Shown here in pieces: positions 3,516 to 20,900 of a DNA stretch of 64,000 nt. Under the pieces are notes generated by a model, which was not told the DNA's origin, did no database searches, and saw only the letters and a list, made by a program, of their open reading frames with translations. Position 1 is the first letter of the stretch; each line of letters opens with the position of its first letter. Source of the DNA: Candidatus Bathyarchaeia archaeon (GTDB lineage Archaea > Thermoproteota > Bathyarchaeia > Bathyarchaeales > Bathycorpusculaceae); assembly GCA_049521795.1 (NCBI GenBank), contig JBEKOM010000003.1, positions 157,752 to 221,751 of the forward strand, in the 5' to 3' direction. A program made the position numbers and the translations under genes.

Positions 3516-3737
3516 TTAACTCCCTCTTCGAAAACCTATTGAGGGTTGGATATTTAATTTTCACTCTTTCCATGATCCGCTTTCATATTCCGCTTGTGCC
3601 AAGATGTCTTTCTCCTCAAGTAACTCAACGGCTCGATAAGAAGAGATTTAAGAAGCATCTGGGCAAATCAGTGAAGCAGGTTGATTGTCCAGATCAATTG
3701 GCACTGATCCAGAGCTCCGATGAGGGATGGTGAAACA

Positions 3738-4523
3738 ATGTGTGGAATATTCGGTTTTTCACTGAGAAAACCTGTGTCCATGAACAAAGTCTTCAAGGTT
3801 CTTCAAAAACTGGAGGTCAATCAGCTTCCGCAAGAGCCGCGGCCCGTCGGTGGTTATGGTGCTGGTGTTGCCGTGCTCTTGGAAGATGGCAACCTGCTAG
3901 TCGAGAAAGTTGGAAAGGTCGATGGGTCTCCTGCTTGTCACCTGCCTGAAATTGTCAAGGTCAAGGACGCCTCAGTCTTGCTTGGACATGTGAGGATGCC
4001 GAGTCCGGAGTTCATGAGCACGGCCAAGCTCAAGGAGACTGCGCAGCCCTACGTCGTTGAACGCGACCCAGGGTTAACCATAGCCTCGGTTCACAACGGG
4101 AAAATGGAGAATTATGAAGAGGTCAGAAAGAAGTTCGGGGCCGGACACGTTTTCGAGTCTGAGAAGGTTGAACTCATCGATTCAGAGGTCATTCCGCATT
4201 TTTTCGAAGAGATGCTCAGTGAAAAGGGAGACGTTACTGAAGCCTTGTACGGGTTTTTCTGTGCTTTAGAGGGCTCAAACGCAGTGGCCATGCTGCAACT
4301 GGGAGAAGAGAACTCGTTCCTGCACCTTGTTCACAAAGGAAAATCAAGGGGACTAACGGTTTGGACCAGTGAAAAAGGCGAGGTGATCTTCTGCTCAAGG
4401 AAAACACCGTTAGTAGAGGAATTCGGGAAAACACTTGAAACAGGAAAGTTCAAAGAGACAATATCAATACCGTACCGCGAAAGCGCTGGCCTGATACTTT
4501 CTTACCCGTTGCCGGGAAGATAA
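3738..4523 (+). CDS. Class II (Ntn) glutamine amidotransferase domain protein
   Basis: N-terminal MCGIFG, GHVR, AQPY, VHNG, DSE motifs. Confidence 0.85.
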   Translation: MCGIFGFSLRKPVSMNKVFKVLQKLEVNQLPQEPRPVGGYGAGVAVLLEDGNLLVEKVGKVDGSPACHLPEIVKVKDASVLLGHVRMPSPEFMSTAKLKETAQPYVVERDPGLTIASVHNGKMENYEEVRKKFGAGHVFESEKVELIDSEVIPHFFEEMLSEKGDVTEALYGFFCALEGSNAVAMLQLGEENSFLHLVHKGKSRGLTVWTSEKGEVIFCSRKTPLVEEFGKTLETGKFKETISIPYRESAGLILSYPLPGR

Positions 4524-4558
4524 AGAATAAGACTTGCGATCACCCATCTTTTCGACTT

Positions 4559-7492: not shown

Positions 7493-8231
7493 CAAGATGA
7501 ACAGTTCCCAAGGTGAAAACTTGGCTGGTCTCACGGGGAAGCTCAAAGATTTCGTCAAAAAGAAGGGAGCAACACTCGTGGGAGTAGCAACCACAAAAAG
7601 ATTTTCAAGAGCGCCGAAAGGCCATCGTCCGAGAGACCTCTTGCCGAACGCCAAAAGCGTCATCTCCATAGGACTACGCATAAACAAGTCTTCAATTCTT
7701 CAACTTCCAAAAACCATGAGAGAGTACAAGATAAACTATGACGTGGCAAACCAGAAGCTTAACAGCCTAGCATGGGAGACAGCGCGATTTCTCGAAGACC
7801 TTGGATACGAAGCCTTAGCGATTCCAGCCAGCTCACCGTACGACAAAAAGAAGAATTTCGGGGATATGTCCCACAAGCACGCAGCCGTCGCAGCTGGCAT
7901 GGGCAGGTTTGGAATGAACAATCTGGTCCTGACACCAGATTACGGGCCTTACGTACGTTTTGTCACAGTCATAACAAGCGCCGCGCTCAGACCTGATAGA
8001 CCCTTGACCGAGGACATTTGCCTTCTGGAAAAGTGCCTAAAATGCGTCAAGGCTTGTCCTGCCGGAGCCTTGGAAAACCCAGTGTACGATGCTTCTGAAG
8101 GATGGCTGATAAACAAGGAGAAATGTCACGAATACATGCACATCGTCTCTGGCGGGACCGTATGCGGCCTGTGCATCAAAGCGTGCCCAATAACGAGACC
8201 ACAAGACCCGCGATCAAAATCCAACGATTGA
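7479..8231 (+). CDS. Epoxyqueuosine reductase/reductive dehalogenase-like 4Fe-4S protein
   Basis: SHKHAAVAAGMG, GxNNLVLTPDYGP, CxxxxCxxCxxxCP and CxxCxxxCP. Confidence 0.85.
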   Translation: MTAHNKMNSSQGENLAGLTGKLKDFVKKKGATLVGVATTKRFSRAPKGHRPRDLLPNAKSVISIGLRINKSSILQLPKTMREYKINYDVANQKLNSLAWETARFLEDLGYEALAIPASSPYDKKKNFGDMSHKHAAVAAGMGRFGMNNLVLTPDYGPYVRFVTVITSAALRPDRPLTEDICLLEKCLKCVKACPAGALENPVYDASEGWLINKEKCHEYMHIVSGGTVCGLCIKACPITRPQDPRSKSND

Positions 8232-8372
8232 GGGCCATTAAGGATAGAGAACATGAGCAGAGATCCACGCTTAAGCCGACTTCTGGACTGCTCAGCGTCA
8301 CGACCATAAGCATAGGCGCACGCGATGTAAGAACTGCCATTACATGCCGCAAGAGTTGATGTTTGGGTTTGA

Positions 8373-8551
8373 GGGTAAAGTTTTATCCAAACCAAACTGA
8401 CGACGATGCTAGTGGTCTCAGAAGAGGCTAGTGAGACGGCAATATACACGGTTCAGCACATAGCCTATGATCTCTGCAAAGGAGGGGATATAACGGAATT
8501 CAGGTCATAATGGGGTGCGTAAATAGGGGCTATCGGAATCGAGTATACGCC
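8373..8551 (+). repeat. Dispersed ~180-bp element, copy 1 (palindrome GGGTAAAGTTTTATCC ... TCGGAATCGAGTATACGCC)
   Basis: Shares both end motifs and an internal GTCATAATRGGGT with 26576-26765. Confidence 0.75.
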
Positions 8552-8658
8552 CTTTGCGTTTCCGAGCCAAAGGATTGCTTTCTTTCTTTGAAACCCATGC
8601 AGTTTGAATGCGAAGTTTTTTTATAGTGAAAATAAGAATTGCTCAAGAGATGGTGTGA

Positions 8659-9099
8659 ATGAAGGAAGATCGTGTACGAGATTTTGTTGTAACTTGGCTC
8701 AGCAAAAATGACTATACCGATATAAAACTGACCGCCTCACGTGGCGCACCTCGAAAACGCAGAGAAGGAAGGGGACGACCTCGATTGAATCCGACCGATC
8801 CTGATGTCAAAGCGAGAAAAGGATCGGCATATTACTTCATTGAAGTGAAGGGCGATCCACCATTGACTTGGAAAATCTACCAAGCTGTTGGGGAAATCTG
8901 CACTAAGCGAGCATCAACAACCCCAAAGATATGTGCCATTGCTTTTCCAAGGTCTTTTGCTAGAATTCTTTCAAAGACACTTCCCCTCAGAGCCTGGGAA
9001 AAGCTGAAGATAAGAATTCTCATAGTAGATAACTCGGGAAATGTGAGCGAGTTCCCACCGTCCAAAAGGAGTTTTGAAAAAATCCAAGGGCTATTGTGA
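8659..9099 (+). CDS. PD-(D/E)XK restriction-endonuclease-like protein
   Basis: E..V..WL helix, PDVKA..YFIEVKG, YQAVGE; inserted basic segment with GRGRPR. Confidence 0.7.
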   Translation: MKEDRVRDFVVTWLSKNDYTDIKLTASRGAPRKRREGRGRPRLNPTDPDVKARKGSAYYFIEVKGDPPLTWKIYQAVGEICTKRASTTPKICAIAFPRSFARILSKTLPLRAWEKLKIRILIVDNSGNVSEFPPSKRSFEKIQGLL

Positions 9100-9229
9100 A
9101 AAACATATCTACTTACTTGTCAAGAACTCCTATGGGTGAGTTCGCTTTAAGAACTGATTTGGCACATTGGCTCACCCAACGAATTCTCACAATGAAAAGA
9201 CTGATTAGACATCAAATACGACAGATAGA

Positions 9230-10438
9230 ATGGGTATAAGAATGACAGAGAAAGCTTTGTACTATCCTGGGTCGAATGGCGAAGGGTCAATTAATGTCCC
9301 AAACCTTCATTTTCTTCCCTCTAGGACCATGGAGGGCTTTGATGGGTTCAGCCCGATAGTTATTCTTGGTGGAACAGTCGATTTTGTCCCGTTTCAGGAA
9401 AAAGAATACGAATGCGCCAGAATTGAAAGAGAGGCATTTAATTCTCTTCAGAAAGGGAATGTTGTTTGTCTGACTGCAAATGTGGACGGCCTGATGGGAA
9501 GCATTCTTGGAAGGATAGGTGCAGGATTTCTTTCTTCTTCTTCTTCACAGTTACGGGTTGACCATGTAGTGAAAAGATCAGAGTTCCTCCCGTTCTACCA
9601 AGGATTTGTCTCATTGCATGGTCACATTGTTGGCGGGCCTTTTGACGACGTAATCTGCGAAGATGCAGACAAAGAGGTGATCGGTTTTGCCAAGAAAGTG
9701 GACAAGGGTGTTCTGATTGCTTTACCCTGCCTTATGCCTATCGACAAATTCTCTGACTATTTCTACTTAGATAGATTTCTGAACTCACTGTTTGACGCTC
9801 TGGATAAATATGGCCCTAAAATCCAGTACAAACCACCGCTCTGGATTGACTCATTTACGTTTCCTAAAGAAATCCCTGTATTGTCCACGGTTCAGAGGCT
9901 TCAGAACGAACTCGAATTGCAGAAAAAAGTGTTGGAAGGGTATCTGAGGCTTAAAGAAATCTTGTGGTTTAGAAATAACGAGTTGGTCGTTTCAGTTATC
10001 AAGTTCTTCGAGAGCATGGGATTGAGGACAAAGAGGGAAGAGAAATACGAGGAAGATTTTTGGATTTTGGATGGAAAAGATGAGGACATTATTGTGGAGG
10101 TAAAAGGGCTAGATAAAAACCTGACAAGGCAACACATAAGTCAGTTAGACGAGCACAGAGCGGCAAGGGAAAAACCTGATGACTTCCCCGCATTACTAGT
10201 CGTCAACAGTTTTAACAGAGCTGTTTCCTTAAAGGAAAAGAACGAGGCTTTTGCTCCAAATGAAATAAAGAAGGCCGTTCAAACAAATGTTCTCTTGATG
10301 AGAACGTTTGATCTGTGTCAGGTGTTTTCCATGATCGAAGAAAGAAAATTGAATGCTTCGAAACTGATTAGAATAATCAAGACTGAAAAAGGTTGGTTGA
10401 AAGCAATAGGTTCCGCCTTGGAAATCAAACATGAATGA
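9230..10438 (+). CDS. Protein with coiled coil and C-terminal PD-(D/E)XK nuclease-like domain
   Basis: EDFWI..IIVEVKG..ISQL motif after a helical linker. Confidence 0.7.
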   Translation: MGIRMTEKALYYPGSNGEGSINVPNLHFLPSRTMEGFDGFSPIVILGGTVDFVPFQEKEYECARIEREAFNSLQKGNVVCLTANVDGLMGSILGRIGAGFLSSSSSQLRVDHVVKRSEFLPFYQGFVSLHGHIVGGPFDDVICEDADKEVIGFAKKVDKGVLIALPCLMPIDKFSDYFYLDRFLNSLFDALDKYGPKIQYKPPLWIDSFTFPKEIPVLSTVQRLQNELELQKKVLEGYLRLKEILWFRNNELVVSVIKFFESMGLRTKREEKYEEDFWILDGKDEDIIVEVKGLDKNLTRQHISQLDEHRAAREKPDDFPALLVVNSFNRAVSLKEKNEAFAPNEIKKAVQTNVLLMRTFDLCQVFSMIEERKLNASKLIRIIKTEKGWLKAIGSALEIKHE

Positions 10439-10659
10439 GAATAATACTCGAAGGCAGAAAGGTGGGCAACGGAGACGTCGCTGTCTACTTCCAAAATAGG
10501 GCTTGGTTCACGAAAAGAGGACTGAACAGACGCATAGTGCTGCATGAATTGTATCATCACTTGATTTACGTAAATGGGACGGACATGCCTCAGAGAATGG
10601 AGGAAAAAAGTGCTGATGGTTATGCTAGAGATTTTCTAAACCAATGTTTTGCCTTTTGA
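10435..10659 (+). CDS. Small HEXXH metallopeptidase-like protein (ImmA/IrrE-like, possibly a remnant)
   Basis: VLHELYHH plus E..AD.YA; ATGA overlap with upstream stop. Confidence 0.5.
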   Translation: MRIILEGRKVGNGDVAVYFQNRAWFTKRGLNRRIVLHELYHHLIYVNGTDMPQRMEEKSADGYARDFLNQCFAF

Positions 10660-10734
10660 CATCCAAAAAGTGATGGAGGAGCTGATCGGATCGACCGCAA
10701 GTATTGACCTAGTGCATTCAACCCTGCGGAGAAA

Positions 10735-11856
10735 TCATGCTTTGACCAGTGTAGCTATCTTAGTAGAATAGTTTCTGATTATGCAAGCTCCCCTGAATGG
10801 TTGCGTCTTTATGCATTTGCCGCATTTGTTGCATTTCACTGAATCAACGGTGATAGACTGGCCATCCACCTTTAAAGCCCCTCTTCTGCACAAAGATGTA
10901 CAAGCCCCGCAGGCTTTGCAGTTTATTGCCTTCTCAACAAGAACGTTGAGTCTTCTTCTGTCAATATCCTTGACTGTAATCCTCAGTTTGCTTCCAATAT
11001 GGAAGTAGTTGTCTGTAATTATTGGTAATATCTTGACTAAGCGTCTTATCTGTTCTTCGTTCTGGCCACTGAAAATCAGGTCAATCTGGTCTCTATCTGT
11101 CTGACAAGGAGAGTATAATCCTACTGAGATCTTCTTTATCGGACTAGCCCAAGCAGTCCATCCTCTTCCTGTTATGAACTTCTCTCTATCCATAACATTC
11201 ATCTTCACAGCAAAATCAGCCAAGAGCCTTTCGAATGAGCATGCTCTTTCTGGAAATATCTTCTTGATTTTCTTCCAGTCGTCGTCTGTCCTGAAGGGGC
11301 AACACCAGCATCCTATTCGATCAAAATACTTGTACAATGGATTGATGGGAAGAGAGTTGTCTTTAATATAGGTCCAGACATCGTCGTCACTCCACTCAAG
11401 AATCGGGTTTATTTGTAGGACTGGAACGAGAGGGTTATTGTCAAGCATCTTGTATCGAGATCTCTTGTTAGATTCTTTCATCCTGAGCCCAGTGACGAAT
11501 CCATATAGATCTTCACTTGCCGCGTAATTCGAAAGTGGCCCAAATTTGAAGACGTCACAACACCATCTTAGAATTCGCGAGGGAAATCCTACATGTTTTA
11601 CCATCTCAAAAAATGTGATAGGTGCACGAACAACGTCAATATCCATACCGTAGAAGGCTCCCACTTGTTCCACGAATTCCTTCGTTTCATCAAACTCAAC
11701 TGTGGTGTCACAAAAGACTGCTTTCCTTATTCCGACCCTATGTGCCAAATCCAAGGTAACTAGACTGTCCTTTCCACCTGAAAAACTCACAGCTACTTTT
11801 TTCTCGGAAATGCTTGAGAGATAGGTCAAAGCGATTTTCTCTTTCTCGACTAACAC
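10735..11856 (-). CDS. Phosphoadenosine phosphosulfate (PAPS) reductase family protein with C-terminal 4Fe-4S dicluster
   Basis: SFSGGKDS PP-loop, RWCC..FK, GLR..ES..R, NPILEW, RIGCWCCP; CKACGACTSLC and CNKCGKC. Confidence 0.9.
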   Translation of the reverse strand: MLVEKEKIALTYLSSISEKKVAVSFSGGKDSLVTLDLAHRVGIRKAVFCDTTVEFDETKEFVEQVGAFYGMDIDVVRAPITFFEMVKHVGFPSRILRWCCDVFKFGPLSNYAASEDLYGFVTGLRMKESNKRSRYKMLDNNPLVPVLQINPILEWSDDDVWTYIKDNSLPINPLYKYFDRIGCWCCPFRTDDDWKKIKKIFPERACSFERLLADFAVKMNVMDREKFITGRGWTAWASPIKKISVGLYSPCQTDRDQIDLIFSGQNEEQIRRLVKILPIITDNYFHIGSKLRITVKDIDRRRLNVLVEKAINCKACGACTSLCRRGALKVDGQSITVDSVKCNKCGKCIKTQPFRGACIIRNYSTKIATLVKA

Positions 11857-11934
11857 AATAAGTGAATTGATTACCCGGCTATAAATATCCTTGGCTCAAG
11901 GATGTAACGTGTCTGTATGAGCAAAGCTCTTATA

Positions 11935-11980
11935 GAAGACGTGAGATAAGATACGTGATACAAGAGACGTGATACGTGAA
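11935..11980 (+). promoter_or_regulatory. ACGTGA direct repeats, putative operator in divergent promoter region
   Basis: ACGTGA at 11939, 11953, 11967 (14-bp period) and 11974, just before ATG 11983; TATA-like boxes near 11880 and 11930. Confidence 0.55.
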
Positions 11981-11982
11981 CT

Positions 11983-12843
11983 ATGATCTGTATTAAATGC
12001 GGACTGAAGAAAAGCGGGAACCAAGATTTCTTTGAGTGTGATAACTGCAGAGATTTTTCGAAAATCGTCAGAACAGTTTTCGATGATATACATGAAAAAA
12101 TGGAACGAGCAGGGAGTATCGATCCAGATACTCATCCTATCCTAAGGCTGCTCGCTGATAGCTCTTTTATCACGTCAAAGAATCCTCAAACAGCAATCTT
12201 CTACAAAATCAGCGACTACATAGTTTCGAAAGCTTTTGCTGGTGTCAATGAAGTCACAGAAGATGAACTTAACCAGCATGTAACTACCACTAGGGGATGG
12301 AGTGGTGCTTTCAAGATTTTCGAGGAACTGAACCTTGTGCGTGTTCGGACCGAGAAATTCCGACGTGTTCTTGTCCTGACGGACAAAACCCGAAAATTCG
12401 CAACTCAATATCTGGGAGCTGAGCACCTTAGCGATATAGGCCTCAGAACAAGACTTGCTCATATCTACGGAGGATATGTTCTTCTTTTCATTCTATGCAA
12501 GATGGCGGATTTGTCCGTGGACAACATAGACAAAGCAACGCTTCCATATAACCAGAGACCCAGGACTTTTTGGATTACATTGATGTTCTTATGGTCAAAT
12601 GCCTACCTAGACAGTCGGACTTTCAGCGGGGAGGACCTGAGAGTATTCGTGTCGAAACGGCGCATACCTTCGACAACGAGAGGAAAAATACTAAATGCCC
12701 TTGAAGCGAAAGATGGACGCAGTACTCAAGGTCTCATAAAAGATGTGCGCATTGAAGACGGGGGCCTAACATTTGAGTTCGAGGATTATGTATTGCTGGA
12801 AATGCAAAGAATCAGAGAACTCGTGAGAGAAAGAGAACGTTAA
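11983..12843 (+). CDS. Hypothetical protein, N-terminal C4 Zn finger, probable winged-helix domains
   Basis: CIKC..CDNC; helix/wing-like segments; ends RERER; TAATG coupling to next gene. Confidence 0.75.
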   Translation: MICIKCGLKKSGNQDFFECDNCRDFSKIVRTVFDDIHEKMERAGSIDPDTHPILRLLADSSFITSKNPQTAIFYKISDYIVSKAFAGVNEVTEDELNQHVTTTRGWSGAFKIFEELNLVRVRTEKFRRVLVLTDKTRKFATQYLGAEHLSDIGLRTRLAHIYGGYVLLFILCKMADLSVDNIDKATLPYNQRPRTFWITLMFLWSNAYLDSRTFSGEDLRVFVSKRRIPSTTRGKILNALEAKDGRSTQGLIKDVRIEDGGLTFEFEDYVLLEMQRIRELVRERER

Positions 12844-13616
12844 TGGAGAGTAGTCACATGTTTGAAACGAAAGAAGCAGAAGCTGTAAGCGGAGTGACAC
12901 TTCCTGAAGTAAATCTACTGCCTGAGCTACTGCAAATCGAAGATCTAATCTCGCGAACTTGTGAATACTTTTTCAAGAGTGGATCCCCTCTGCCCAATTC
13001 TCCTTTCAAAGGTTTTCTTTTGCAGGGACCTCCCGGAACCGGGAAGACTGAAATAGTGAAGCAGGTTGCGAGGAAGCTTGACAGAAGAATGGGAAATGTG
13101 TATTGGTTATTTATCGATGGGGCTTCGATTGCAGCTCCCAAATGGGGCGATGCTGAGAAAGCGCTAAGGAATGTTTTCAAAACAGCGGAGCAATTGAGTA
13201 AGAATTACAGAAACCCGAGGTTACTTGTGCATTTCGATGACATAGAATGTCTAATGATGGCAAGAGGAGCAGAGTTGGCAAAAGAATGGCATTATTCGAT
13301 TAACTCCATCCTATTTCATGAGATCGATAGACTTGACCCAATATCCACAATAGTTTGTGGAACGACGAATAGGCCTGATTTGGTTGATGAGGCTCTTCGA
13401 GACCGGCTCTATGTGATTGAAGTTTCTCCTCCTCCTATTGAACAGCTAAAATTCGTCATAAGAGAGATTCTTGATTCGACTGGTGTGACCTCCAAGAAAG
13501 AGACAATGGAAGCGAGAGTCTTTTCCAAACTTAGAGACCTGCCCAAAGCCACAATCAGAGATGCTCGTCAGCTCACAGTTGTCGAATGTATCAAGGAGAG
13601 ACTGTGGACCGTATGA
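12843..13616 (+). CDS. Single-domain classical-clade AAA+ ATPase
   Basis: GPPGTGKT, pore loop PKWGD, Walker B VHFDDIE, second region of homology TTNRPDLVDEALRDR. Confidence 0.9.
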   Translation: MESSHMFETKEAEAVSGVTLPEVNLLPELLQIEDLISRTCEYFFKSGSPLPNSPFKGFLLQGPPGTGKTEIVKQVARKLDRRMGNVYWLFIDGASIAAPKWGDAEKALRNVFKTAEQLSKNYRNPRLLVHFDDIECLMMARGAELAKEWHYSINSILFHEIDRLDPISTIVCGTTNRPDLVDEALRDRLYVIEVSPPPIEQLKFVIREILDSTGVTSKKETMEARVFSKLRDLPKATIRDARQLTVVECIKERLWTV

Positions 13617-14002
13617 TTCCTTTAGATGAAATACCAAGATCAGGCCAACTAATCATAGCAGTTCACTTCAGCGGATATGGGCAATACTATGCCAATGAGA
13701 CAAGGAAAGCACTAATGCATTTACCTGAGAGAGCGGACGTTAAAGAAATTGGCATTGAATTCTATCCTCTAGACTACTGGCTAAAGAGGGCGATCGTGGG
13801 AAAGGAGAAGGATGAAGAACAGTATGCAACAGATGAGGCAACCTGGTACAGCACTCGAGCAGGTGGAGGCTTGTACAAGATCGGCTTCGCTGATATGACG
13901 CCTGAGAAGTTTGAGAAACTGCATATCGTTTTGAAGAAAATGCAGAAAACCTACTGGGAGAATTATGAGATACTTATTGCGAGTCAAGTTGAGGGATTTT
14001 AA
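13613..14002 (+). CDS. Hypothetical protein (129 aa)
   Basis: ATGA overlap with AAA stop; TAATG coupling downstream. Confidence 0.7.
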   Translation: MIPLDEIPRSGQLIIAVHFSGYGQYYANETRKALMHLPERADVKEIGIEFYPLDYWLKRAIVGKEKDEEQYATDEATWYSTRAGGGLYKIGFADMTPEKFEKLHIVLKKMQKTYWENYEILIASQVEGF

Positions 14003-14133
14003 TGGCAAGATTGTCTAAAGAGTTCGTTGAAAAGATAGCACTTGAGAAAACCACTACACAAAATCTCCAAGACCAAGTCGAACGAGAATTGAAAGGACTG
14101 GTAGAAGAGATTGCCACGAGGTTTGCCAAATGA
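14002..14133 (+). CDS. 43-aa amphipathic helical peptide
   Basis: MARLSKEFVEKIALEKTTTQNLQDQVERELKGLVEEIATRFAK*; fills the gap exactly with TAATG and ATGA overlaps; not in ORF track. Confidence 0.7.
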   Translation: MARLSKEFVEKIALEKTTTQNLQDQVERELKGLVEEIATRFAK

Positions 14134-16094
14134 AGGCCACACTTAGACTGAAGAATATTGGGGGCCTGAAGGAAGGAGACTACATGTTCAGATCAGACAA
14201 GCTGAACATTATCGAATCTGCCAATTCTTCTGGAAAGACTTCAATCGTCAAAGCCCTAGCTGGAATATTATCAATACCTAAGAATGGTGCCCTTTCAGAG
14301 TCTATGTTTGATGAGGCAATTAAACTTGGCATCAAGACAGATCCTCACAATCCCTTTGAAGGATTTGTGAATGTGCATGCAAGTCAAGGTCAGGCAGAGC
14401 TCGAACTTGATGGCACTAGGGAAAAGTACGTTGTTAAACAAAACGGAGATGTTATTGCAGCTCCCGAACATGGTGATGAGAGATTTCTGTTGGCTGGAGT
14501 CTTGTGCAACAACTCTCGAGTACTCAGACAATTGAGAGGACTCGATCAGAGAGAGCCAGATGACTTCAGATGGGCAGTTGAAGAACTGTCTTTTGCTCGG
14601 AAGTATTCCGACGTGGCAGAGGTTCTGAAGACTTGGAAAGAAGACTTCACTGAAAAAGAAGAGTTGATCAAGAAGAGCATTCAGGAAATGAAACCTCTTA
14701 ATGAACGCCATTCCGCCCTTCAAAAAGAGATAGAGAAACTTGATTCAAGAGTCAACAAACTAACAACTGAGCTTGCAGACACTCGTGTGGAGATCGAGAG
14801 CATAGTGAAGGATAGGGAAGAATCACTGAGAGAGATCAACCGTCTGAAAAAGGAAATGCAGGATAGAGAAGTCTTGAAGACAAGAATCACAGTAACAGAG
14901 CTTGCACCAAAGCAACGTGAGTTGGAAAAGGCAAAGGCTGTCAAGAAGGAGAATGAATCAAAACTTCAGAAAACTCGTGAGGAGATTGAGGCGTTAGAGA
15001 ACAAAGGAAGTAGAAAACAAGAGATTGAAATTGAAGTAAACAAGCTTATGGATCAACGCAATACGTTGGACGGAATTCTTAATCTCTACATTGTTGCGGA
15101 AACTAGCTTACGGGAAAAAAGGGGTGACAAGGTGCCTTGTCCGCTTTGCGAGGTCGGGTACGTAACATATCGTGGAATAACACAGCACATCACGGAATGT
15201 CGCGGCCAACGCGAATCGCTGAACTCAAGAATCTTACAGCTCAACCAAGAGAAGCAGAATATTTCAATTCAATTGACAAAGGCTCAGGAACGTGCCCAGG
15301 AATTGCGCAGCAGAATCAGAGAGCAGAGTGATCGAATAGGTTTCATCGAGAAAGACCTCAAGAAACCTGAAGATGCTGTCAGACAGATTGACAGCGTCAT
15401 CGCAGACTACAAGAGGAAATTGGAAAGTGAACAAAAGAGCTTCGGCGAGCTTGACAAGGAAGTGAGTTCCCATACAGGCAAGACGGCAAATGAGGAATTC
15501 AATGAATTGAACAAGACTCGTTCCCGAATGCATGAGGAATCGGGTCGCATTCTTGAAAGATTAAGCGAGCTTTCAGTTTTTCCAATTATGGAAACGGTCT
15601 TCGATACAAAAGTGGCAGCGCTCGTGGCCAAAGATGTTGTCGAGATACTCAAAGATAGAATCAGTCACCTTGAACAAAGGGCTGAAGAGGAAAGGGAACA
15701 GGCTGCAAGAAGATTCAATGAGAGCATCAACATTCTGTTAGCGAACCTTGGCTTCAAGGAATTCAGAACAATGAAACTCGCAGGTTCGCCAAGTTATAGA
15801 CTCTATGTAGAACGGTTTGACTCTCAGAAGAAGGACTACAAGAGCCAAGATGTTGGAACTCTTAGCACTTCAGAGAAGCTGGCAATCTCATTGATACTGC
15901 AGATGGCTCTGAAGGAGACATACATGAGAAACACGCCTTTCCTCATAGTTGATGATGTGCTAGAGGATTTTGACCCTGAAAGACGAGAGCTAGTTGTTGA
16001 ATATTTGAAAGACAAGATCTCCAAGGAAAACTGGTTCATAGTAGCAACGAAACTGGTGGAAAAACGTGGCCCTCCCACAGTCAAATATCTCTAG
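14130..16094 (+). CDS. SMC/Rad50-like ATPase with zinc hook (archaeal Sph/ClsN-like)
   Basis: LKNIGG, Walker A ANSSGKTS, long coiled coils around CPLC, signature LSTSEK, Walker B/D-loop FLIVDDVLEDFD. Confidence 0.88.
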   Translation: MKATLRLKNIGGLKEGDYMFRSDKLNIIESANSSGKTSIVKALAGILSIPKNGALSESMFDEAIKLGIKTDPHNPFEGFVNVHASQGQAELELDGTREKYVVKQNGDVIAAPEHGDERFLLAGVLCNNSRVLRQLRGLDQREPDDFRWAVEELSFARKYSDVAEVLKTWKEDFTEKEELIKKSIQEMKPLNERHSALQKEIEKLDSRVNKLTTELADTRVEIESIVKDREESLREINRLKKEMQDREVLKTRITVTELAPKQRELEKAKAVKKENESKLQKTREEIEALENKGSRKQEIEIEVNKLMDQRNTLDGILNLYIVAETSLREKRGDKVPCPLCEVGYVTYRGITQHITECRGQRESLNSRILQLNQEKQNISIQLTKAQERAQELRSRIREQSDRIGFIEKDLKKPEDAVRQIDSVIADYKRKLESEQKSFGELDKEVSSHTGKTANEEFNELNKTRSRMHEESGRILERLSELSVFPIMETVFDTKVAALVAKDVVEILKDRISHLEQRAEEEREQAARRFNESINILLANLGFKEFRTMKLAGSPSYRLYVERFDSQKKDYKSQDVGTLSTSEKLAISLILQMALKETYMRNTPFLIVDDVLEDFDPERRELVVEYLKDKISKENWFIVATKLVEKRGPPTVKYL

Positions 16095-16953
16095 AACCTC
16101 AAATGCAGGTTATCCCCAGGCGGGCGCAGGACCGCACGATAAGTGGAAACGCCAGCTATATGCTGGAAAGTGTAAGCTCTGCGGCAACAAATCGTACGGA
16201 GAACACTGCAAGCTGTGTGAATATACTCTCCTGCAAATGGATGAAATAATCAAGCTGTATTTGGAAGGGGCTCCACCTGAGGACTTGGACAACGCAGTTG
16301 TAGAGTTCGATAGGATCTACTTTAGCAATCTGAGAATAAGGACGTTCTATAATACGGCTTGCGAAGCGATCCGCTTTGTTATCGTGAATCCCAATTCGCC
16401 GCTCATACTGATGGAACCAAATTTCTCAAATATCCCAGAGCCCAAGATTCTGGCAATTCTGGAAGAAAGCAAAATAATCACAAAAAAAGAAGAGAATATA
16501 TATGCCGGACCGTTGCTCGAGAAGCTTATCAGGTTAAGACTCACTAAGTACGGAATCAGCTCCCCGGAGTTCGCAAAACAGCTCAGAATCATATATGCTG
16601 TTCTTACACTTGTAGTAACCAAGACATTGCTCAAACATGAAGAGTACATTCCGCAGATCGTCGTTGGAGTTTTCCGCGTTATTTCCGCTCATGTCGCCCG
16701 GAATTTCGATTCTGCGATGATTCCAAAGGAAATCACACGTTCGACATGGGAGGCAGGTCTGAGAGGTATGAACCCGAGAGAAGAGGTCCATCTAGAATGG
16801 GATCTACTTGGACTGACTGCAAACACCAACCCCCGCATATTCGACGACTATGATGCAGAGCTAGAGCAATTCATCTCAAAGCCTTGCATGCTCAACTACT
16901 ATGAGTATGTCCGAAACATCATCAGGGAGAGACAACTTGAGAGGGACCGCTAA
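16066..16953 (+). CDS. Hypothetical protein, C4 Zn finger, paralogue of 11983-12843
   Basis: CKLC..CKLC; collinear similarity to 11983-12843; ends RERQLERDR; exact start uncertain. Confidence 0.75.
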   Translation: MALPQSNISRTSNAGYPQAGAGPHDKWKRQLYAGKCKLCGNKSYGEHCKLCEYTLLQMDEIIKLYLEGAPPEDLDNAVVEFDRIYFSNLRIRTFYNTACEAIRFVIVNPNSPLILMEPNFSNIPEPKILAILEESKIITKKEENIYAGPLLEKLIRLRLTKYGISSPEFAKQLRIIYAVLTLVVTKTLLKHEEYIPQIVVGVFRVISAHVARNFDSAMIPKEITRSTWEAGLRGMNPREEVHLEWDLLGLTANTNPRIFDDYDAELEQFISKPCMLNYYEYVRNIIRERQLERDR

Positions 16954-17087
16954 AGAGCGAGACTACGCGCGCACACACACAAGATGAAGTTAATTGTTTG
17001 GAGCCTTGCAGTTAGAGCAATTTGTGAGTCGTTTGGAACAAAACAGTTCCACAATACGCACGCGCTGGTTGGCTGACTGAAAAGGAC

Positions 17088-17714
17088 TCATGAATGAATG
17101 ATGCGGCTGGCCACATCTGTGACGCCGTTTATCAAGAACTGTACAGCGATTGCCAAGACGATGATGGCCATTATCCGTGTGACCACATGCAAGCCTTCAG
17201 TGCCTAACCGGCCGGCAAGTCGGCCCGCGTAAGTCATCCCCACGTACGAAAGCAACACGCTCACAAGAACTGCCACAAACACGAAAGGCCACTCAAGCAG
17301 GTCGTTGGTCTGAGACATGAGCAACATCACCGTCGTGATCGAACCGGGTCCCGCAGTCAAAGGAAACGCCAGGGGTACGATCGCAACGTCCTCCAACTCC
17401 TCTCGCGTGTACTCATCCTTCCTGGGATGCAGCATCCTCATAGCGACATCAACCAACAGAATCCCGCCTGCGATCTGAAAAGCTGAAATAGTAATGTTGA
17501 AGACTGAAAACACAAGCTGCCCCGCCAGGGCAAAAAAAGCCAACACCACAAAAGAAATCTTCATGGCCTTGCCCACGATTCGCCGTTTCTCTTCAGTACT
17601 CTAGCCCTCGGTCAAACTGAGATAGATCGCAATGTTGCTGCCAGGCTCAACAACTGCGACCACAGATGTTACGGCGAGCAAAGCAAAACCTATAACCTCA
17701 AGCACCCAGACCAC
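17088..17714 (-). pseudogene. marC: MarC family membrane protein interrupted by in-frame TAG
   Basis: AFQIAGGILL, VPLAFPLTAGPGSI, RIMAIIVLAIAVQ; the frame continues upstream through TAG 17603-17601 to GTG 17714 with a MarC-like N-terminus. Confidence 0.8.
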
Positions 17715-17834
17715 GTCAGATAATCTCCATACTAAAAATTTTAAGCTTTCCTCACTCGCGCGCTAACCAGACAGACGGCTCGCCACTATGAACTTTGTTC
17801 CCACTTTACAGACCCAAGATATGAGAGCGCGCGC

Positions 17835-17913
17835 TACACACCTGTCTGCTTCTTCAAGACCTGTTACCACACAACATTACCACTGACGTTACTTCTGAAC
17901 AAAAGGGGGTCAA
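17835..17913 (+). repeat. Dispersed repeat family A, copy 1
   Basis: CCTGTCTGCTTCTTCAAGA..TGTTACCACACAACATTACCA..CGTTAC..GGGGGTC also at 37920-38020 (+) and 56378-56463 (-). Confidence 0.85.
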
Positions 17914-18190
17914 CCTCGAAATAATCCGACCTCACGAAGTCTAGCGAGCGCTATGTTTTGTGCTGGCGCAGATTCGGTTGACAGTTCTGGTTGGAGAACA
18001 AAAGCGGCGCGCTGCCTTGTCCCATTATTATGCGTGCGCACTTGAACAGCCACGTGGCCCCGCATCCAACCTGAACAGCCTCACCGTTTTCAACGATGCT
18101 TGCCAACTGGATATGCAAAGTGTATTTGCAAAACGTATATGCTCACAATTACGCACTATTCACAAATTTAGGGACAAGCCAACGCGCTGG

Positions 18191-18643
18191 TTAGGGTTGC
18201 ATTGTTCGGCGGGGCATGATTCGTTGTTGTTGCGTTGTCGTGTCAGGAAACCTGGAGTAGTGTTCGTGGACCACTTTCCATGTTGAATCTTGTTTGTTGA
18301 GGACGGATGTGACGCGTGAAGTCACGTCGAACGTCCTGTTTCTCATCACTGCCTGATAATGTATGATGAACGTGGCGATCGCTGTGTTGCCGAGAATGTT
18401 CGCTTGAAAATCCCTCAACTCGTAACTGTAGCTGGACATCACCTTGAACGCTCCGAACTCGTTCTCCAAGGCTTTCGAGCCTTCCTGCCTCTCAAAGGGC
18501 GGCCAGTCGTCAAACTTGTTGTAGTGCTCATCAACGAGAGCTTTCACCGCACCCTCATCCCTGTTCTTCATAGCGTCAAACCGACTAACTATAACACTTC
18601 TGACTTCATCCTGCGCGGATGATCCGACTGCAGTCTGTGCCAT
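18191..18643 (-). CDS. NTF2/SnoaL-like (DUF4440) protein
   Basis: GNTAIATF..RVTSVL.KQDSTWKVVHEHYS signature. Confidence 0.85.
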   Translation of the reverse strand: MAQTAVGSSAQDEVRSVIVSRFDAMKNRDEGAVKALVDEHYNKFDDWPPFERQEGSKALENEFGAFKVMSSYSYELRDFQANILGNTAIATFIIHYQAVMRNRTFDVTSRVTSVLNKQDSTWKVVHEHYSRFPDTTTQQQRIMPRRTMQP

Positions 18644-18856
18644 TTTGACACTCTCACCATAAGGCGCTTGTTCTTCTCTCTTCAAAACGCGCTGGTATCT
18701 TATGTTCCTTTCTCAAACTGGTTCTGTGAAGTCTTCGGTTGATATGGGGTTCATGTGAAAATTCGGTTGATGAATCAGAATATGTTGTAGAAACTGGAAC
18801 CCTAAGAGTTTATTAAAATGAAATATGCTTGAGCGCGCGCGAGGTCGCAAGAAATT

Positions 18857-19116
18857 GGGTCCGCCCCCTTTTGGGTTCGATTCCGTAGAGGCCTGAGCCC
18901 CTTAGGGTTCTAGTCCGACCGGAATTTTGCGCATTCTCCTCCGAACCCTTAATAGATAATAGATCTGCAGAATGGATATCATTCTTATTTCTCGGCTCTG
19001 AACCAGTTGGCCTAAGACAAAGAGAATGCTGATTACAGAATATTTGAAGTAGCGGACTCGAACCCGTTTGGGTCTAAGTCCGCTAGAAGCCTGAACGCGT
19101 TCAGGTGCTGGTCCGG
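18857..19116. repeat. REP-like hairpin repeats (GGACTCGAACCC-N4-GGGTTCGAxTCC) and a ~77-bp repeat
   Basis: Degenerate ~30-bp hairpin units at 18857-18917 and 19054-19116; 18995-19071 recurs at 25332-25408; hairpin again at 30242-30270. Confidence 0.7.
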
Positions 19117-19348
19117 GCAGTATGCTGTATGTGAGGTTTTCAGGTTTTGAAAATGTTCATGGAGTGTTGATACAGTTCGTCAGGCTCTTCCTCGCGCGCT
19201 TCGTTCCTTTGATTGGGCTAGCATCAGTTGTGTATCAAAGTAAGGCTCTCAGCACATATGGTCGCCGTTGGAAACCAGCCGCCTTTATTGCGTCTCGAAT
19301 CGCTTCGCGCGCGCTAATCGCCTGGGTTAAGAGATTAGTGTGTTGGTG

Positions 19349-19858
19349 CTAGTGAAAGAATTTCTTAAGTACAAACTTGAGATTGTAGTTGTAATATTCC
19401 TGTTTGCCAATGTAAGTGACATTTGTCGCTCTGTTCTTTATCTGTTCTTTCTTGAGGCCATACGCTTTGATGCATTTTCCAATATCCTCAAGATCTCTAT
19501 CATCAAGTCTTCCAATTTTCGTTACGACAATGTCAACTGGGTGGAGAGCTCTCAATGATATGCGTTCCAGATTGGCTATTTCTGTACTATTGGCTAAATA
19601 GTCATCTGGAAGGTTCTGACTGAAGATGCACCCATCCAGAAATATATCAATCTTATGACCGTGCGGTACATTTTTCTCGGCCCTCTTGTACTCAGGAAAG
19701 TCACTGCTAGGAATTGTGAAGTCGATGTCTATTGTTGATGGTTTTAGATCAAGTAGTGTCATTGCTGTTCCACCAACGGCTATGAGAGTGATTTTTCTGC
19801 CAAGCTCCTTATTCAACTCTTCTAGAAAGTTGAGTAATTCGCTCTTATCAAGTGGCAT
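19349..19858 (-). CDS. Nucleotidyltransferase toxin-like protein (DUF6036/AbiEii-like)
   Basis: AVGGTAM..K.STIDID, DIVVTKIGR..RDLEDI. Confidence 0.8.
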   Translation of the reverse strand: MPLDKSELLNFLEELNKELGRKITLIAVGGTAMTLLDLKPSTIDIDFTIPSSDFPEYKRAEKNVPHGHKIDIFLDGCIFSQNLPDDYLANSTEIANLERISLRALHPVDIVVTKIGRLDDRDLEDIGKCIKAYGLKKEQIKNRATNVTYIGKQEYYNYNLKFVLKKFFH

Positions 19859-20900
19859 TGTATAATCTCATTTTCTGCAGAATGCTTTGCTCATCGGTCG
19901 GTGTTTCTTCCAAATTGAAGATCTTCAGAATATCTAGTGTCTCACCTGTTTCACTCGACGATTTTATCTTTTGCAGGATTCTCAACAAACCTAAGAGTTT
20001 TCCAGTTGTTCCGAATTTCTGACTTAAGAATGCCAACAGGTTGCTTCTAAAACTGTTTTTTGCCAGAACTATTGGTACAGCTTCCAGTCGCCTCGGATCG
20101 TCTAGAAGTAATAGGGCCGTGATTAAGTATTCGATGCAAAATTTCTTGCCTTGTTCTATCTTGAGCCCAAATTCTTTGTATCCAAATCTGCCAAGATTGT
20201 AGACGATATCCAAATCTGAGATGCTAGCTGGTTTTGTTTCTGTCTTAATAAATTTGATTTCGGTCTTTTCTGCAACTTCTCTGATTTCACTCCAGAACGC
20301 TTGAGGACAGAAAAAGACGGTCTTTCTGAATAGGGCTTCTCTGAGGGGATTGATCTCATCCGACCTTATCAGATCAGAAAAATCATCTTCATCTAGGATA
20401 AGACTGTCAACTCTCAAGTTATACTTGTTCTGCAGTTTCAACATTTCGCTGTAAAGCCTAACAGTCTCATTATGATAATCAGATGTTTTCCTTAAGAGAA
20501 AGAGCAACTCAACCCTGTTGAGTTTGATGTTTTTTACGAGATTTATGGAACTAATCGATTTTATTGCGCACGTTTCATTCAGAGACTTGTCCATTTCTGT
20601 TAAGAATATCAGCAAGTCATTTCTATTCTTTAAGAGTTCCATCTTTTTCTCCATTTCCATCTCCGACAGGAGATCGATCAATAAGTAATTCTGAAAGTTT
20701 AGTTTAATAATGGAAGATCTTCCCAGGTTGTCGAGAGTAAGCACATTTTCTTTCTTTAGTTTCTGCAATTTTTGGTAGATGTTCGCATAATATGCACTGC
20801 CATATGTATCTTTGATTCTCTCAGTAAGCTGATTAATCGACAAACTTTCACCTAAATTAGATGATACCGTATCTAAGATTCGAAGCGTGGGTGTATCCAT
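19848..20900 (-). CDS. wHTH-containing putative antitoxin/regulator
   Basis: N-terminal wHTH (SINQLTERI..YANIYQKLQKL), overlaps the NTase gene. Confidence 0.7.
   Translation of the reverse strand: MDTPTLRILDTVSSNLGESLSINQLTERIKDTYGSAYYANIYQKLQKLKKENVLTLDNLGRSSIIKLNFQNYLLIDLLSEMEMEKKMELLKNRNDLLIFLTEMDKSLNETCAIKSISSINLVKNIKLNRVELLFLLRKTSDYHNETVRLYSEMLKLQNKYNLRVDSLILDEDDFSDLIRSDEINPLREALFRKTVFFCPQAFWSEIREVAEKTEIKFIKTETKPASISDLDIVYNLGRFGYKEFGLKIEQGKKFCIEYLITALLLLDDPRRLEAVPIVLAKNSFRSNLLAFLSQKFGTTGKLLGLLRILQKIKSSSETGETLDILKIFNLEETPTDEQSILQKMRLYNAT

Follow-up and report, generated by a model that had tools for sequence, protein, structure and literature searches.

A conserved, uncatalogued archaeal gene cassette carrying an SMC-like ATPase of the ASRP family and a BrxP-type PAPS-reductase-like enzyme

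In a 64,000-nucleotide stretch of a Candidatus Bathyarchaeia archaeon genome (assembly GCA_049521795.1, contig JBEKOM010000003.1, positions 157,752 to 221,751 of the forward strand; hereafter the window), seven genes at positions 10735-16953 form a cluster that is real, conserved and not catalogued, and whose two informative components belong to known families. One is an SMC-like ATPase of the family of archaea-specific SMC-related proteins (ASRP), and the other is an enzyme resembling phosphoadenosine phosphosulfate (PAPS) reductase, of the type found in BrxP. The reading that we favour is that the seven genes constitute a DNA-modification module, likely for phosphorothioation (PT) or a related thiolation of the DNA backbone or bases, by analogy with DndCDE and BrxPC but with an ASRP as its base; we put its probability at roughly 45%. 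The genes are as follows.

10735-11856, minus strand: PAPS-reductase-like gene, 373 amino acids (aa), divergent from g1
11983-12843, plus strand: g1, predicted zinc-ribbon/double winged-helix protein, 286 aa
12843-13616, plus strand: g2, AAA ATPase, 257 aa
13613-14002, plus strand: g3, protein without a known family, 129 aa
14002-14133, plus strand: g4, micro-protein, 43 aa
14130-16094, plus strand: g5, SMC-like ATPase, 654 aa
16066-16953, plus strand: g6, predicted zinc-ribbon/double winged-helix protein, GTG start, 295 aa

An initial annotation of this region had described six tightly joined genes with a divergent PAPS reductase beside them, and the coordinates and junctions of the open reading frames (ORFs) bear this out. 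By their coordinates, g1 and g2 overlap by 1 nucleotide and g5 and g6 by 29 nucleotides; read in the sequence itself, the g2/g3 and g4/g5 junctions are ATGA overlaps and the g3/g4 junction is TAATG. The same annotation held that the gene set matches no known system. In agreement with this, searches with PADLOC, Pfam and NCBIfam found no complete known system among the seven proteins, and no model of JetA, JetB, JetD, LmuA, LmuC, DndB, DndD, DndE, BrxC, PglZ, BrxL, SspB or SspC matched any of them. A full-text search of main articles returned no published description of this gene combination.

To follow the cluster beyond the window, metagenome contigs were scanned with an alignment of g5 homologues and the loci were then searched by tblastn with all seven proteins. 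The scan recovered 23 metagenome loci, with g5 at 47-100% identity, and the order g1-g2-g3-g4-g5-g6 is preserved in each locus that extends far enough, which was the outcome asked of a gene-order check suggested earlier. The PAPS gene is kept in all eight informative places: upstream and in divergent orientation in the window, L007, L009, L014 and L015 (the last two being near-duplicates), and downstream in L010, L011 and L018. These three downstream loci carry an inserted, diverged g6-like gene (27% identity) and, between it and the PAPS gene, an additional winged-helix/TFIIB-repeat protein.

L010:3369-4370: extra winged-helix/TFIIB protein, assigned by BLAST grouping only
L011:4246-5199: extra winged-helix/TFIIB protein, PF00382 1e-18
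L018:8089-9090: extra winged-helix/TFIIB protein, PF00382 4e-23

The extra protein has a winged helix at its N-terminus together with cyclin repeats of the TFIIB type, and in L011 the PAPS gene is in addition followed immediately by a canonical copy of g6. When the ORFs of these loci were clustered all against all, nothing was widely common beyond the module, further flanks being shared only among near-duplicates; Eco57I-type restriction-modification (RM) methylase genes flank the module in two loci (L009 and L012), and a PIN protein occurs among the flanking genes of others. Because the six-gene order and the PAPS gene are kept while the flanks vary, the seven genes are a self-contained, portable cassette.

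Within the phylum this cassette is accessory and rare as well as portable. The gene for g5 was not found in 10 genomes of the same genus (63-98% complete), and among 40 genomes of relatives it gave weak partial matches only, in four. A g1 profile identified one of 401 phylum-wide genomes, the window's own, together with one marginal match of 30 residues. Scans of genome contigs produced no relative, either with the ASRP alignment (216 pattern matches) or with P0123, a member of the halophile-like clade (125 pattern matches), and none was found in viral contigs with the g1 alignment, in phage records by tblastn with g5, or in plasmids by tblastn with g1. The exact DNA is present in the peat-metagenome runs X1-X4, at 45-100% of sampled words, from four studies of which one is possibly the source; the listed sequencing runs that hold the DNA include no RNA run.

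The PAPS-reductase-like protein was analyzed against family models, homologues and solved structures. Pfam assigns PAPS_reduct to residues 21-187 (5.8e-39), and Fer4 family matches fall at residues 302-350, all of them below the Pfam cut-offs (best Fer4_7, 4e-4, 21.2 bits versus 27). With PADLOC, BrxP was the best match by far (1.1e-49, residues 19-367 on positions 133-514 of the 779-position profile), followed by SspD (3.5e-17) and DndC (1.6e-6). Among NCBIfam models PRK13795.1-2 scored 6e-55, below its cut-off, the DndC equivalog TIGR03183 gave an E-value of 1.4e-5 with 24 bits versus a cut-off of 290, and the CysH and APS-reductase models were likewise below cut-off. The PP-loop SFSGGKDS, the motifs RWCCD and GCWCCP, and two C-terminal ferredoxin-type Cys clusters are invariant in six of six homologues. 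The protein is 29% identical, over 92% of its length, to a 785-aa BrxP whose gene lies in an operon annotated as BREX-4 on a Methanosphaera plasmid, and in this BrxP Pfam recognizes PAPS_reduct, Fer4 and DUF4007. DUF4007 is absent from the 373-aa protein, and the BrxP core of PAPS domain, spacer and Fer4 is otherwise matched.

BrxP is described as combining a PAPS reductase with an alpha+beta domain, a ferredoxin-like region rich in Cys, and DUF4007, the last made up of a helix-turn-helix (HTH) and two winged HTH modules (PMC12839542). According to a further report, brxP and brxC are all that PT synthesis needs, given a desulfurase, and that report's search criterion for PT systems is a PAPS-reductase domain with a P-loop NTPase beside it (10.1101/2024.06.03.597175). 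The PAPS gene had been treated as an appendix to the cluster; because its product has the BrxP core architecture, and because BrxP together with BrxC makes phosphorothioate DNA, it is instead the best clue to function. Genes of the class-V aminotransferase/cysteine-desulfurase type are found elsewhere in the genome (best E-value 8.9e-147). A stand-alone homologue of 381 aa with PAPS and Fer4 regions (34% identity over 93%) is encoded at 3702-4847 of an 18-kb Methanobacterium congolense plasmid (L079, NZ_LT607757.1), where it heads a series of same-strand genes annotated as CARDB, metal-dependent hydrolase, Hjc and transglutaminase-domain protein.

Sulfate-assimilation enzymes carry an ECGLH-type motif as their C-terminal catalytic motif. 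No such motif was seen by eye in the PAPS protein, and the CysH models remain below cut-off; for both reasons we conclude, from these sequence features, that it is not a sulfate-assimilation enzyme. A related alternative is that the genes form an operon for thiolation of RNA or a small molecule, or for sulfur metabolism, with the SMC-like and winged-helix proteins acting on a non-DNA target. The PP-loop superfamily does also thiolate tRNA, through ThiI, MnmA, Ncs6 and TtcA (10.1101/2024.06.03.597175), and the nearest solved structures to the PAPS protein are APS/PAPS reductases (E-value 1e-12). However, the CysH and APS-reductase models fall well short of their cut-offs where BrxP leads by far, zinc-hook SMC-like ATPases, like winged-helix proteins, typically serve to handle DNA, and the distribution of the cassette is accessory and patchy, and we regard this alternative as very improbable.

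The second informative component, g5, matches the NCBIfam model for ASRP, NF045487, along its full length (E-value 5.2e-78, residues 9-643 on positions 1-592 of 593) with 263.1 bits, the cut-off being 300. Since the match is full-length and the score is below the equivalog cut-off, we assign g5, by sequence, to a divergent clade of the ASRP family and not to the equivalog. The SMC protein is no orphan; it belongs to a published family that includes Sph1/2 and ClsN (coalescin) and most of whose members have a zinc hook (Yoshinaga et al., 2022; PMC9389158). The ASRP layout, with Walker A near the N-terminus, Walker B near the C-terminus and, between them, a coiled coil that bears the CxxC hook at its apex (PMC9389158), was recognised in g5, and in 14 of 14 homologues the Walker A residues G35-K36, the hook C337-P338-L339-C340, the LSTSEK signature and the Walker B residues D608-D609 are invariant. 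Its Walker B reads IVDDVLE, and when 19 distant ASRPs are aligned, Asp-Asp is the majority pair. Compared with a haloarchaeal ASRP and with a ClsN-type ASRP of Sulfolobaceae, g5 has 22% identity in a colinear alignment of full length, and this colinearity, like that with the ASRP model, implies a coiled coil. With the family it shares the length class (~590-660 aa), the split ABC head, the putative antiparallel coiled coil and the CxxC zinc hook. The gene neighbourhood differs: the g5 clade has six fixed partners, whereas the flanking genes of the published family are reported with 'no apparent consensus' (PMC9389158).

A profile search of metagenome proteins with g5 returned 381 clusters at E <=1e-3, of which 97 were at E <=1e-30, and g5 with 27 full-length representatives forms its own BLAST cluster at 50% identity. 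The names of the members of 10 ASRP representative clusters were uninformative. ClsN-type ASRPs were detected above cut-off in 15 of 15 genomes of one family of the same phylum, and Sulfolobus acidocaldarius is one of two control genomes that match, so that Thermoproteota is the probable phylum. In two genomes of the same order (L073:7691-9690 in G034:C8 and L074:8241-10160 in G123:C15), the gene for a 501-aa ASRP-like ATPase has immediately after it one for a 133-aa CdvA-like coiled-coil protein (PF18822, 1e-15 and 2e-13, respectively); by these matches, an SMC-like protein is paired there with a cell-division-type partner.

The genome that carries the cassette also encodes Rad50, in a NurA-HerA-Mre11 operon on contig C15. 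A 1211-aa frame on contig C12 matches the ASRP model only in pieces and is read as a canonical SMC from its length alone. Outside the window, at G000:C2 ~188058-191412 (L043:7058-10412), lies a second 654-aa SMC-like gene (PF02463, 3e-39), after which come genes for a 275-aa protein, matching the kleisin C-terminal family Nse4_C weakly and below cut-off (E-value 1.9e-4), and for a 195-aa protein; by these matches this looks like a compact SMC-kleisin set, perhaps with a KITE protein, distinct from the C12 SMC and the C15 Rad50 operon. All three loci were considered as copies of the module and ruled out, being a Rad50 operon, a canonical SMC and a separate SMC-kleisin pair. As the genome holds Rad50, a canonical SMC and this second 654-aa SMC-like gene, g5 is an additional, fourth member of the SMC superfamily.

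Neither g1 nor g6 matches a Pfam, PADLOC or NCBIfam family. The AlphaFold2 models (g1, pLDDT 87.4 and pTM 0.87; g6, pLDDT 77.7 with residues 1-31 disordered) share one order of elements, namely zinc ribbon, long helix, winged helix, helices, winged helix and C-terminal helix, and an R/E-rich tail ends both proteins. In g1 the N-terminal ribbon is of the CxxC...CxxC form and the tail ends in ...RERER. The two were earlier described as Zn-finger proteins, and their predicted folds are alike. hhalign aligned g1 and g6 colinearly over 144 columns at a weak score (E-value 0.027, probability 1.8%), and BLASTP detected no similarity between them; because the predicted architecture and element order are the same, they are probably distant paralogues. 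Homologues of g1 in the metagenome protein collection make up 77 clusters at 39-94% identity, none of them functionally named.

Fold comparisons of g1 returned generic winged-helix or tandem winged-helix proteins only (AF1382, SSV1 F-93, SarS and Cdt1; VIA-align Z <=5.4), with weak Foldseek rows for the tandem winged-helix proteins MAGE and MukE (E-values 0.08-0.25); g6 had no Foldseek match in PDB at E <=0.001. Sequence searches of PDB with g1, g6 and g5 gave two weak winged-helix rows and otherwise chance-level matches, and ESM Atlas results for g1 and g3 (scores <=0.90, low shared-feature counts) were treated as chance. A three-chain complex prediction of g1, g6 and the PAPS protein (score 0.00, mark 0.32) counts neither way on binding.

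The family membership of g5 raises the alternative that the cassette encodes a DNA-organising, segregation or cell-shape complex of the Sph/ClsN type. The ASRP would then act with KITE-like g1 and g6 and bridging g3 and g4 to compact a region of the chromosome or a mobile element, or to partition it, the AAA ATPase would serve as loader or unloader, and the PAPS-type enzyme would be an accessory for cofactor or Fe-S/sulfur handling. Besides the full-length ASRP match of g5 and the weak tandem winged-helix fold matches of g1, this alternative draws on Haloferax, in which Sph3 and the adjacently encoded RdfA are reported to set rod shape, and in haloarchaea more widely an RdfA gene is described as adjoining 42 of 50 SMC-like genes in synteny (Schiller et al., 2024; PMC10869688). 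In tblastn searches with a halophile-type ASRP, 136 plasmid records matched, mostly haloarchaeal by genus name, with 10 listed rows annotated ASRP. In the one such locus inspected in detail, on a Haladaptatus halobius plasmid (L078, NZ_CP085337.1:15154-29028), RdfA lies directly upstream of the ASRP gene, beside orc1/cdc6 and ParA, a context that hints at a role in replicon maintenance.

The cassette resembles Sph3-RdfA in having an ASRP with a small adjacent partner that bears a zinc-binding Cys motif, as described for RdfA (PMC10869688). However, RdfA is ~209 aa with a C-terminal CxxC...CxC and has no detectable similarity to g1, g6 or g3: profiles of the three against a single RdfA sequence from the Haladaptatus plasmid, a weak test, gave hhalign E-values of 0.13, 0.25 and 0.35, respectively, and no RdfA model matched in NCBIfam. 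Haloarchaeal ASRPs, in the two loci inspected, have no adjoining AAA or PAPS gene. In SMC-kleisin-KITE complexes a kleisin spans head and neck, and the KITE subunits have tandem winged helices; g1 and g6 are each predicted to have two winged helices, the MukE and MAGE matches are weak, and no kleisin was recognised. The apparent absence of the module from the same-genus genomes and its rarity in the phylum sit poorly with a core cell-biology function, and this alternative gives no account of why the BrxP-type enzyme is so strictly kept, in both of its arrangements. We therefore consider a Sph/ClsN-type complex unlikely.

g2 is a single-domain protein with a classical AAA match (PF00004, 4.2e-20), which supports the earlier view of such an ATPase as an unusual addition to the set. 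NCBIfam returned CDC48 (2.9e-18) and CdvC (3e-16), both far below cut-off, and the nearest solved relatives in PDB are Afg2/VCP (Cdc48), at ~1e-26. GPPGTGKT, W101-G102 and D132-D133 (Walker B, HFDDIE) are invariant in seven of seven sequences, and a KWG stretch was matched to the pore loop by eye. From these matches g2 is classified as a minimal Cdc48-like classical AAA. g3 is the second most conserved protein of the module after g2 (mean column identity of 78% in an 11-sequence alignment); it matches no Pfam, PADLOC or NCBIfam family, and no fused longer forms were found. Of 15 loci checked, 14 have an equivalent ORF of 43-45 aa where g4 lies, with the shared motif M.RLSKEFLEKL...ELK.L.EE; g4 matches no family.

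PADLOC matched g2 to the defence ATPases IetA (1.6e-12) and TRIP13 (6.9e-11), and g5 best to LmuB (8.9e-17), with weak JetC matches at 5e-4 or worse. These similarities bear on a further alternative, a Lamassu- or Wadjet-like sensor of foreign DNA in which the ASRP detects DNA ends or small circles and activates the PP-loop/Fe-S enzyme or the AAA ATPase against infection. The cassette has with Lamassu (LmuB plus the effector LmuA, joined in type II by LmuC) an SMC-like core of an accessory module in common, and it lies in a lower-GC region with RM genes adjoining it in two loci. The LmuB matches, however, cover mainly the coiled coil and the C-terminal head, which are common to all SMC-like proteins. 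The module contains no LmuA-type effector, LmuC or nuclease domain by Pfam and PADLOC, and, compared with Wadjet, no JetA kleisin, JetB KITE or JetD Toprim. Moreover, in the known systems as these sources describe them, PAPS-reductase-type enzymes modify and are not abortive effectors (10.1101/2024.06.03.597175, PMC10853773, PMC12839542). A foreign-DNA sensor of this kind appears to us a rather poor candidate.

We return to the favoured reading, DNA modification, and to how the cassette stands relative to known modification systems. The Dnd core is described as a coiled-coil ABC ATPase (the DndD/CxC clade, CxC with a Zn hook) with a DNA-binding partner, forming a 'DNA-scanning apparatus'; to this apparatus DndC or other modifiers are recruited, and in many cases no restriction module is coupled to it (PMC10853773). 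The cassette has this logic in common with Dnd/CxC, that is, a coiled-coil ABC ATPase and a small DNA-binding partner recruiting a PAPS-reductase-type enzyme (PMC10853773). By analogy, a BrxP core without a DNA-binding domain, a zinc-hook ABC ATPase and two predicted winged-helix proteins fit such a Dnd-like scheme, and the modelled winged helices of g1 and g6 are what a separate DNA-binding adaptor would be expected to look like. The conserved linkage of the seven genes, the accessory and portable distribution, the lower GC of the region, the RM methylase genes beside two loci and the desulfurase-type genes elsewhere in the genome count for this reading too. The parts themselves differ: the DndC matches are weak, no DndD or DndE model reaches E <=0.1 on the module proteins, the putative adaptors are zinc-ribbon double winged-helix proteins whereas that of Dnd is a double ribbon-helix-helix, and the cassette adds the AAA, 129-aa and 43-aa proteins.

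Relative to BREX type 4 and Ssp, the PAPS protein shares the BrxP core and the link to a P-loop NTPase, but the cassette lacks DUF4007, BrxC/SspC (ORC/Cdc6-type AAA+), PglZ and BrxL. Its NTPases are instead an ABC-type SMC-like protein and a classical AAA, and DNA binding would need g1 and g6. BrxC/PglY, PglZ and BrxL are required in a BREX type 4 cluster and have no match among the seven proteins; of the Ssp components (SspD, SspB with DUF4007, and SspC with the DUF6079 AAA+), the SspD model matches the PAPS protein and SspB and SspC match nothing. The initial annotation had proposed a new machine for DNA-scanning defence or chromosome organisation. What stands of this is a conserved, uncatalogued cluster; because the ASRP and BrxP-type families are known, and because the logic parallels Dnd, Ssp and BREX-4, we regard it as a variant of a known scheme and not as a machine of a wholly new kind.

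The sequences establish which genes the cassette holds, their conserved linkage, their families and architectures, and their accessory, portable distribution; how the products interact, what chemistry they perform and in what order, and any role in defence are inferred. ASRP dimers joined through the zinc hook would be loaded on DNA and, driven by ATP, clamp or scan it; g1 and g6 would be DNA-binding, perhaps target-selecting, subunits. The two proteins may in this way fill the place that DndE has with DndD, SspB with SspC, and DUF4007 within BrxP. The ASRP complex would bring the BrxP-type PP-loop/Fe-S enzyme to DNA, and this enzyme would thiolate it; the sulfur would come from a housekeeping cysteine desulfurase whose gene lies elsewhere in the genome. 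The Cdc48-like g2 may then remodel or recycle the complex, possibly via the R/E-rich C-terminal tails of g1 and g6, and g3 and g4 could be further structural subunits with bridging or regulating roles. Taken one step further, the cassette may represent a fourth, archaeal type of DNA backbone-modification system, in which an ASRP with KITE-like g1 and g6 surveys DNA and delivers a BrxP-type sulfurtransferase and a Cdc48-like ATPase resets the complex; this more specific proposal we advance only tentatively.

Several observations weigh against a modification module. The Methanobacterium congolense plasmid that encodes the stand-alone homologue has no annotated SMC gene, so the enzyme does not need an ASRP in every context. 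In the ORF clustering of the loci no conserved restriction or PT-sensing partner accompanies the module, and among the flanking genes of other loci are housekeeping ones (prolyl-tRNA synthetase, amino-acid kinase, tetrapyrrole methylase), making the defence-island context modest. Compared with the C-terminus (DUF4007) of one BrxP, a single-sequence comparison, g1 and g6 gave hhalign E-values of 0.12 and 0.34, and the Pfam DndE and DUF4007 models match neither protein. Both g5 and g2 carry an invariant Asp-Asp in Walker B in place of the usual Asp-Glu, which supplies the catalytic Glu. Finally, the described biology of ClsN concerns chromosome compartments (PMC9389158) and that of Sph3 with RdfA concerns cell shape (PMC10869688), and neither is modification.

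The surroundings of the cassette in the window were also surveyed. An AT-richer island had been noted, and GC is indeed 0.41-0.46 at ~8.5-17 kb of the window versus 0.48-0.51 on both flanks. A location next to nucleases, claimed at the same time, is not established: the one trace is a sub-threshold match to NOV_C, and the other large neighbour is an Lhr-type helicase. The remaining neighbours are an Fe-S protein and two proteins without a family.

9230-10438: neighbouring gene, 402 aa, sub-threshold NOV_C match (E-value 0.003, 18 bits versus a cut-off of 22.1)

PADLOC gave no match on the neighbour proteins of the module, Rfam no family match at 7500-19500, and a tRNA scan of 1-30000 found none. 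A repeat search found no flanking direct repeats around the island, and no contig of metagenome reads joins across it with adequate flank. Two 'skip' joints across the island, with sides of 22-23 letters and from one run only, were rejected as short repeats. Two short stretches, 8363-8397 and 18719-18772, have depth bins of 97-155 compared with ~1-25 around them (summed over peat-metagenome contigs); the first is a hairpin-like palindrome (TTTGGGTTTG...CCAAACCAAA), both give rise to spurious short-sided 'skip' joints in one run, and neither belongs to an Rfam family. At 19349-20900, on the minus strand and in the region of lowest GC (0.36-0.40), a gene for a 350-aa protein without a family overlaps that for a 169-aa DUF6036 nucleotidyltransferase-like protein (PF19502, 5e-9) with a weak AbiEii match in PADLOC; this pair is possibly toxin-antitoxin-like.

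The established phosphorothioation systems are three, Dnd, Ssp and BREX type 4, and in each of them the PAPS-reductase-type enzyme works with a P-loop NTPase and an element that binds DNA. The cassette retains the PAPS-type enzyme and swaps all else for an archaeal SMC-like complex. ASRPs are widespread in archaea, yet poorly understood in their molecular partners and mechanisms. The g5 clade with its six fixed partners provides a defined protein set for reconstitution, and gives the ASRP family a testable enzymatic output, together with a testable case of an SMC-like complex that has a classical AAA unfoldase of its own. If the cassette is a fourth type of modification system, the ASRP family would gain an enzymatic DNA-marking role beside its structural ones, and an SMC-like complex would have a dedicated AAA remodeller. 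If the module does write a DNA mark, it would provide a tool, and a marker as well, for work on virus-host relations and epigenetics in uncultured archaea of peat and sediment.

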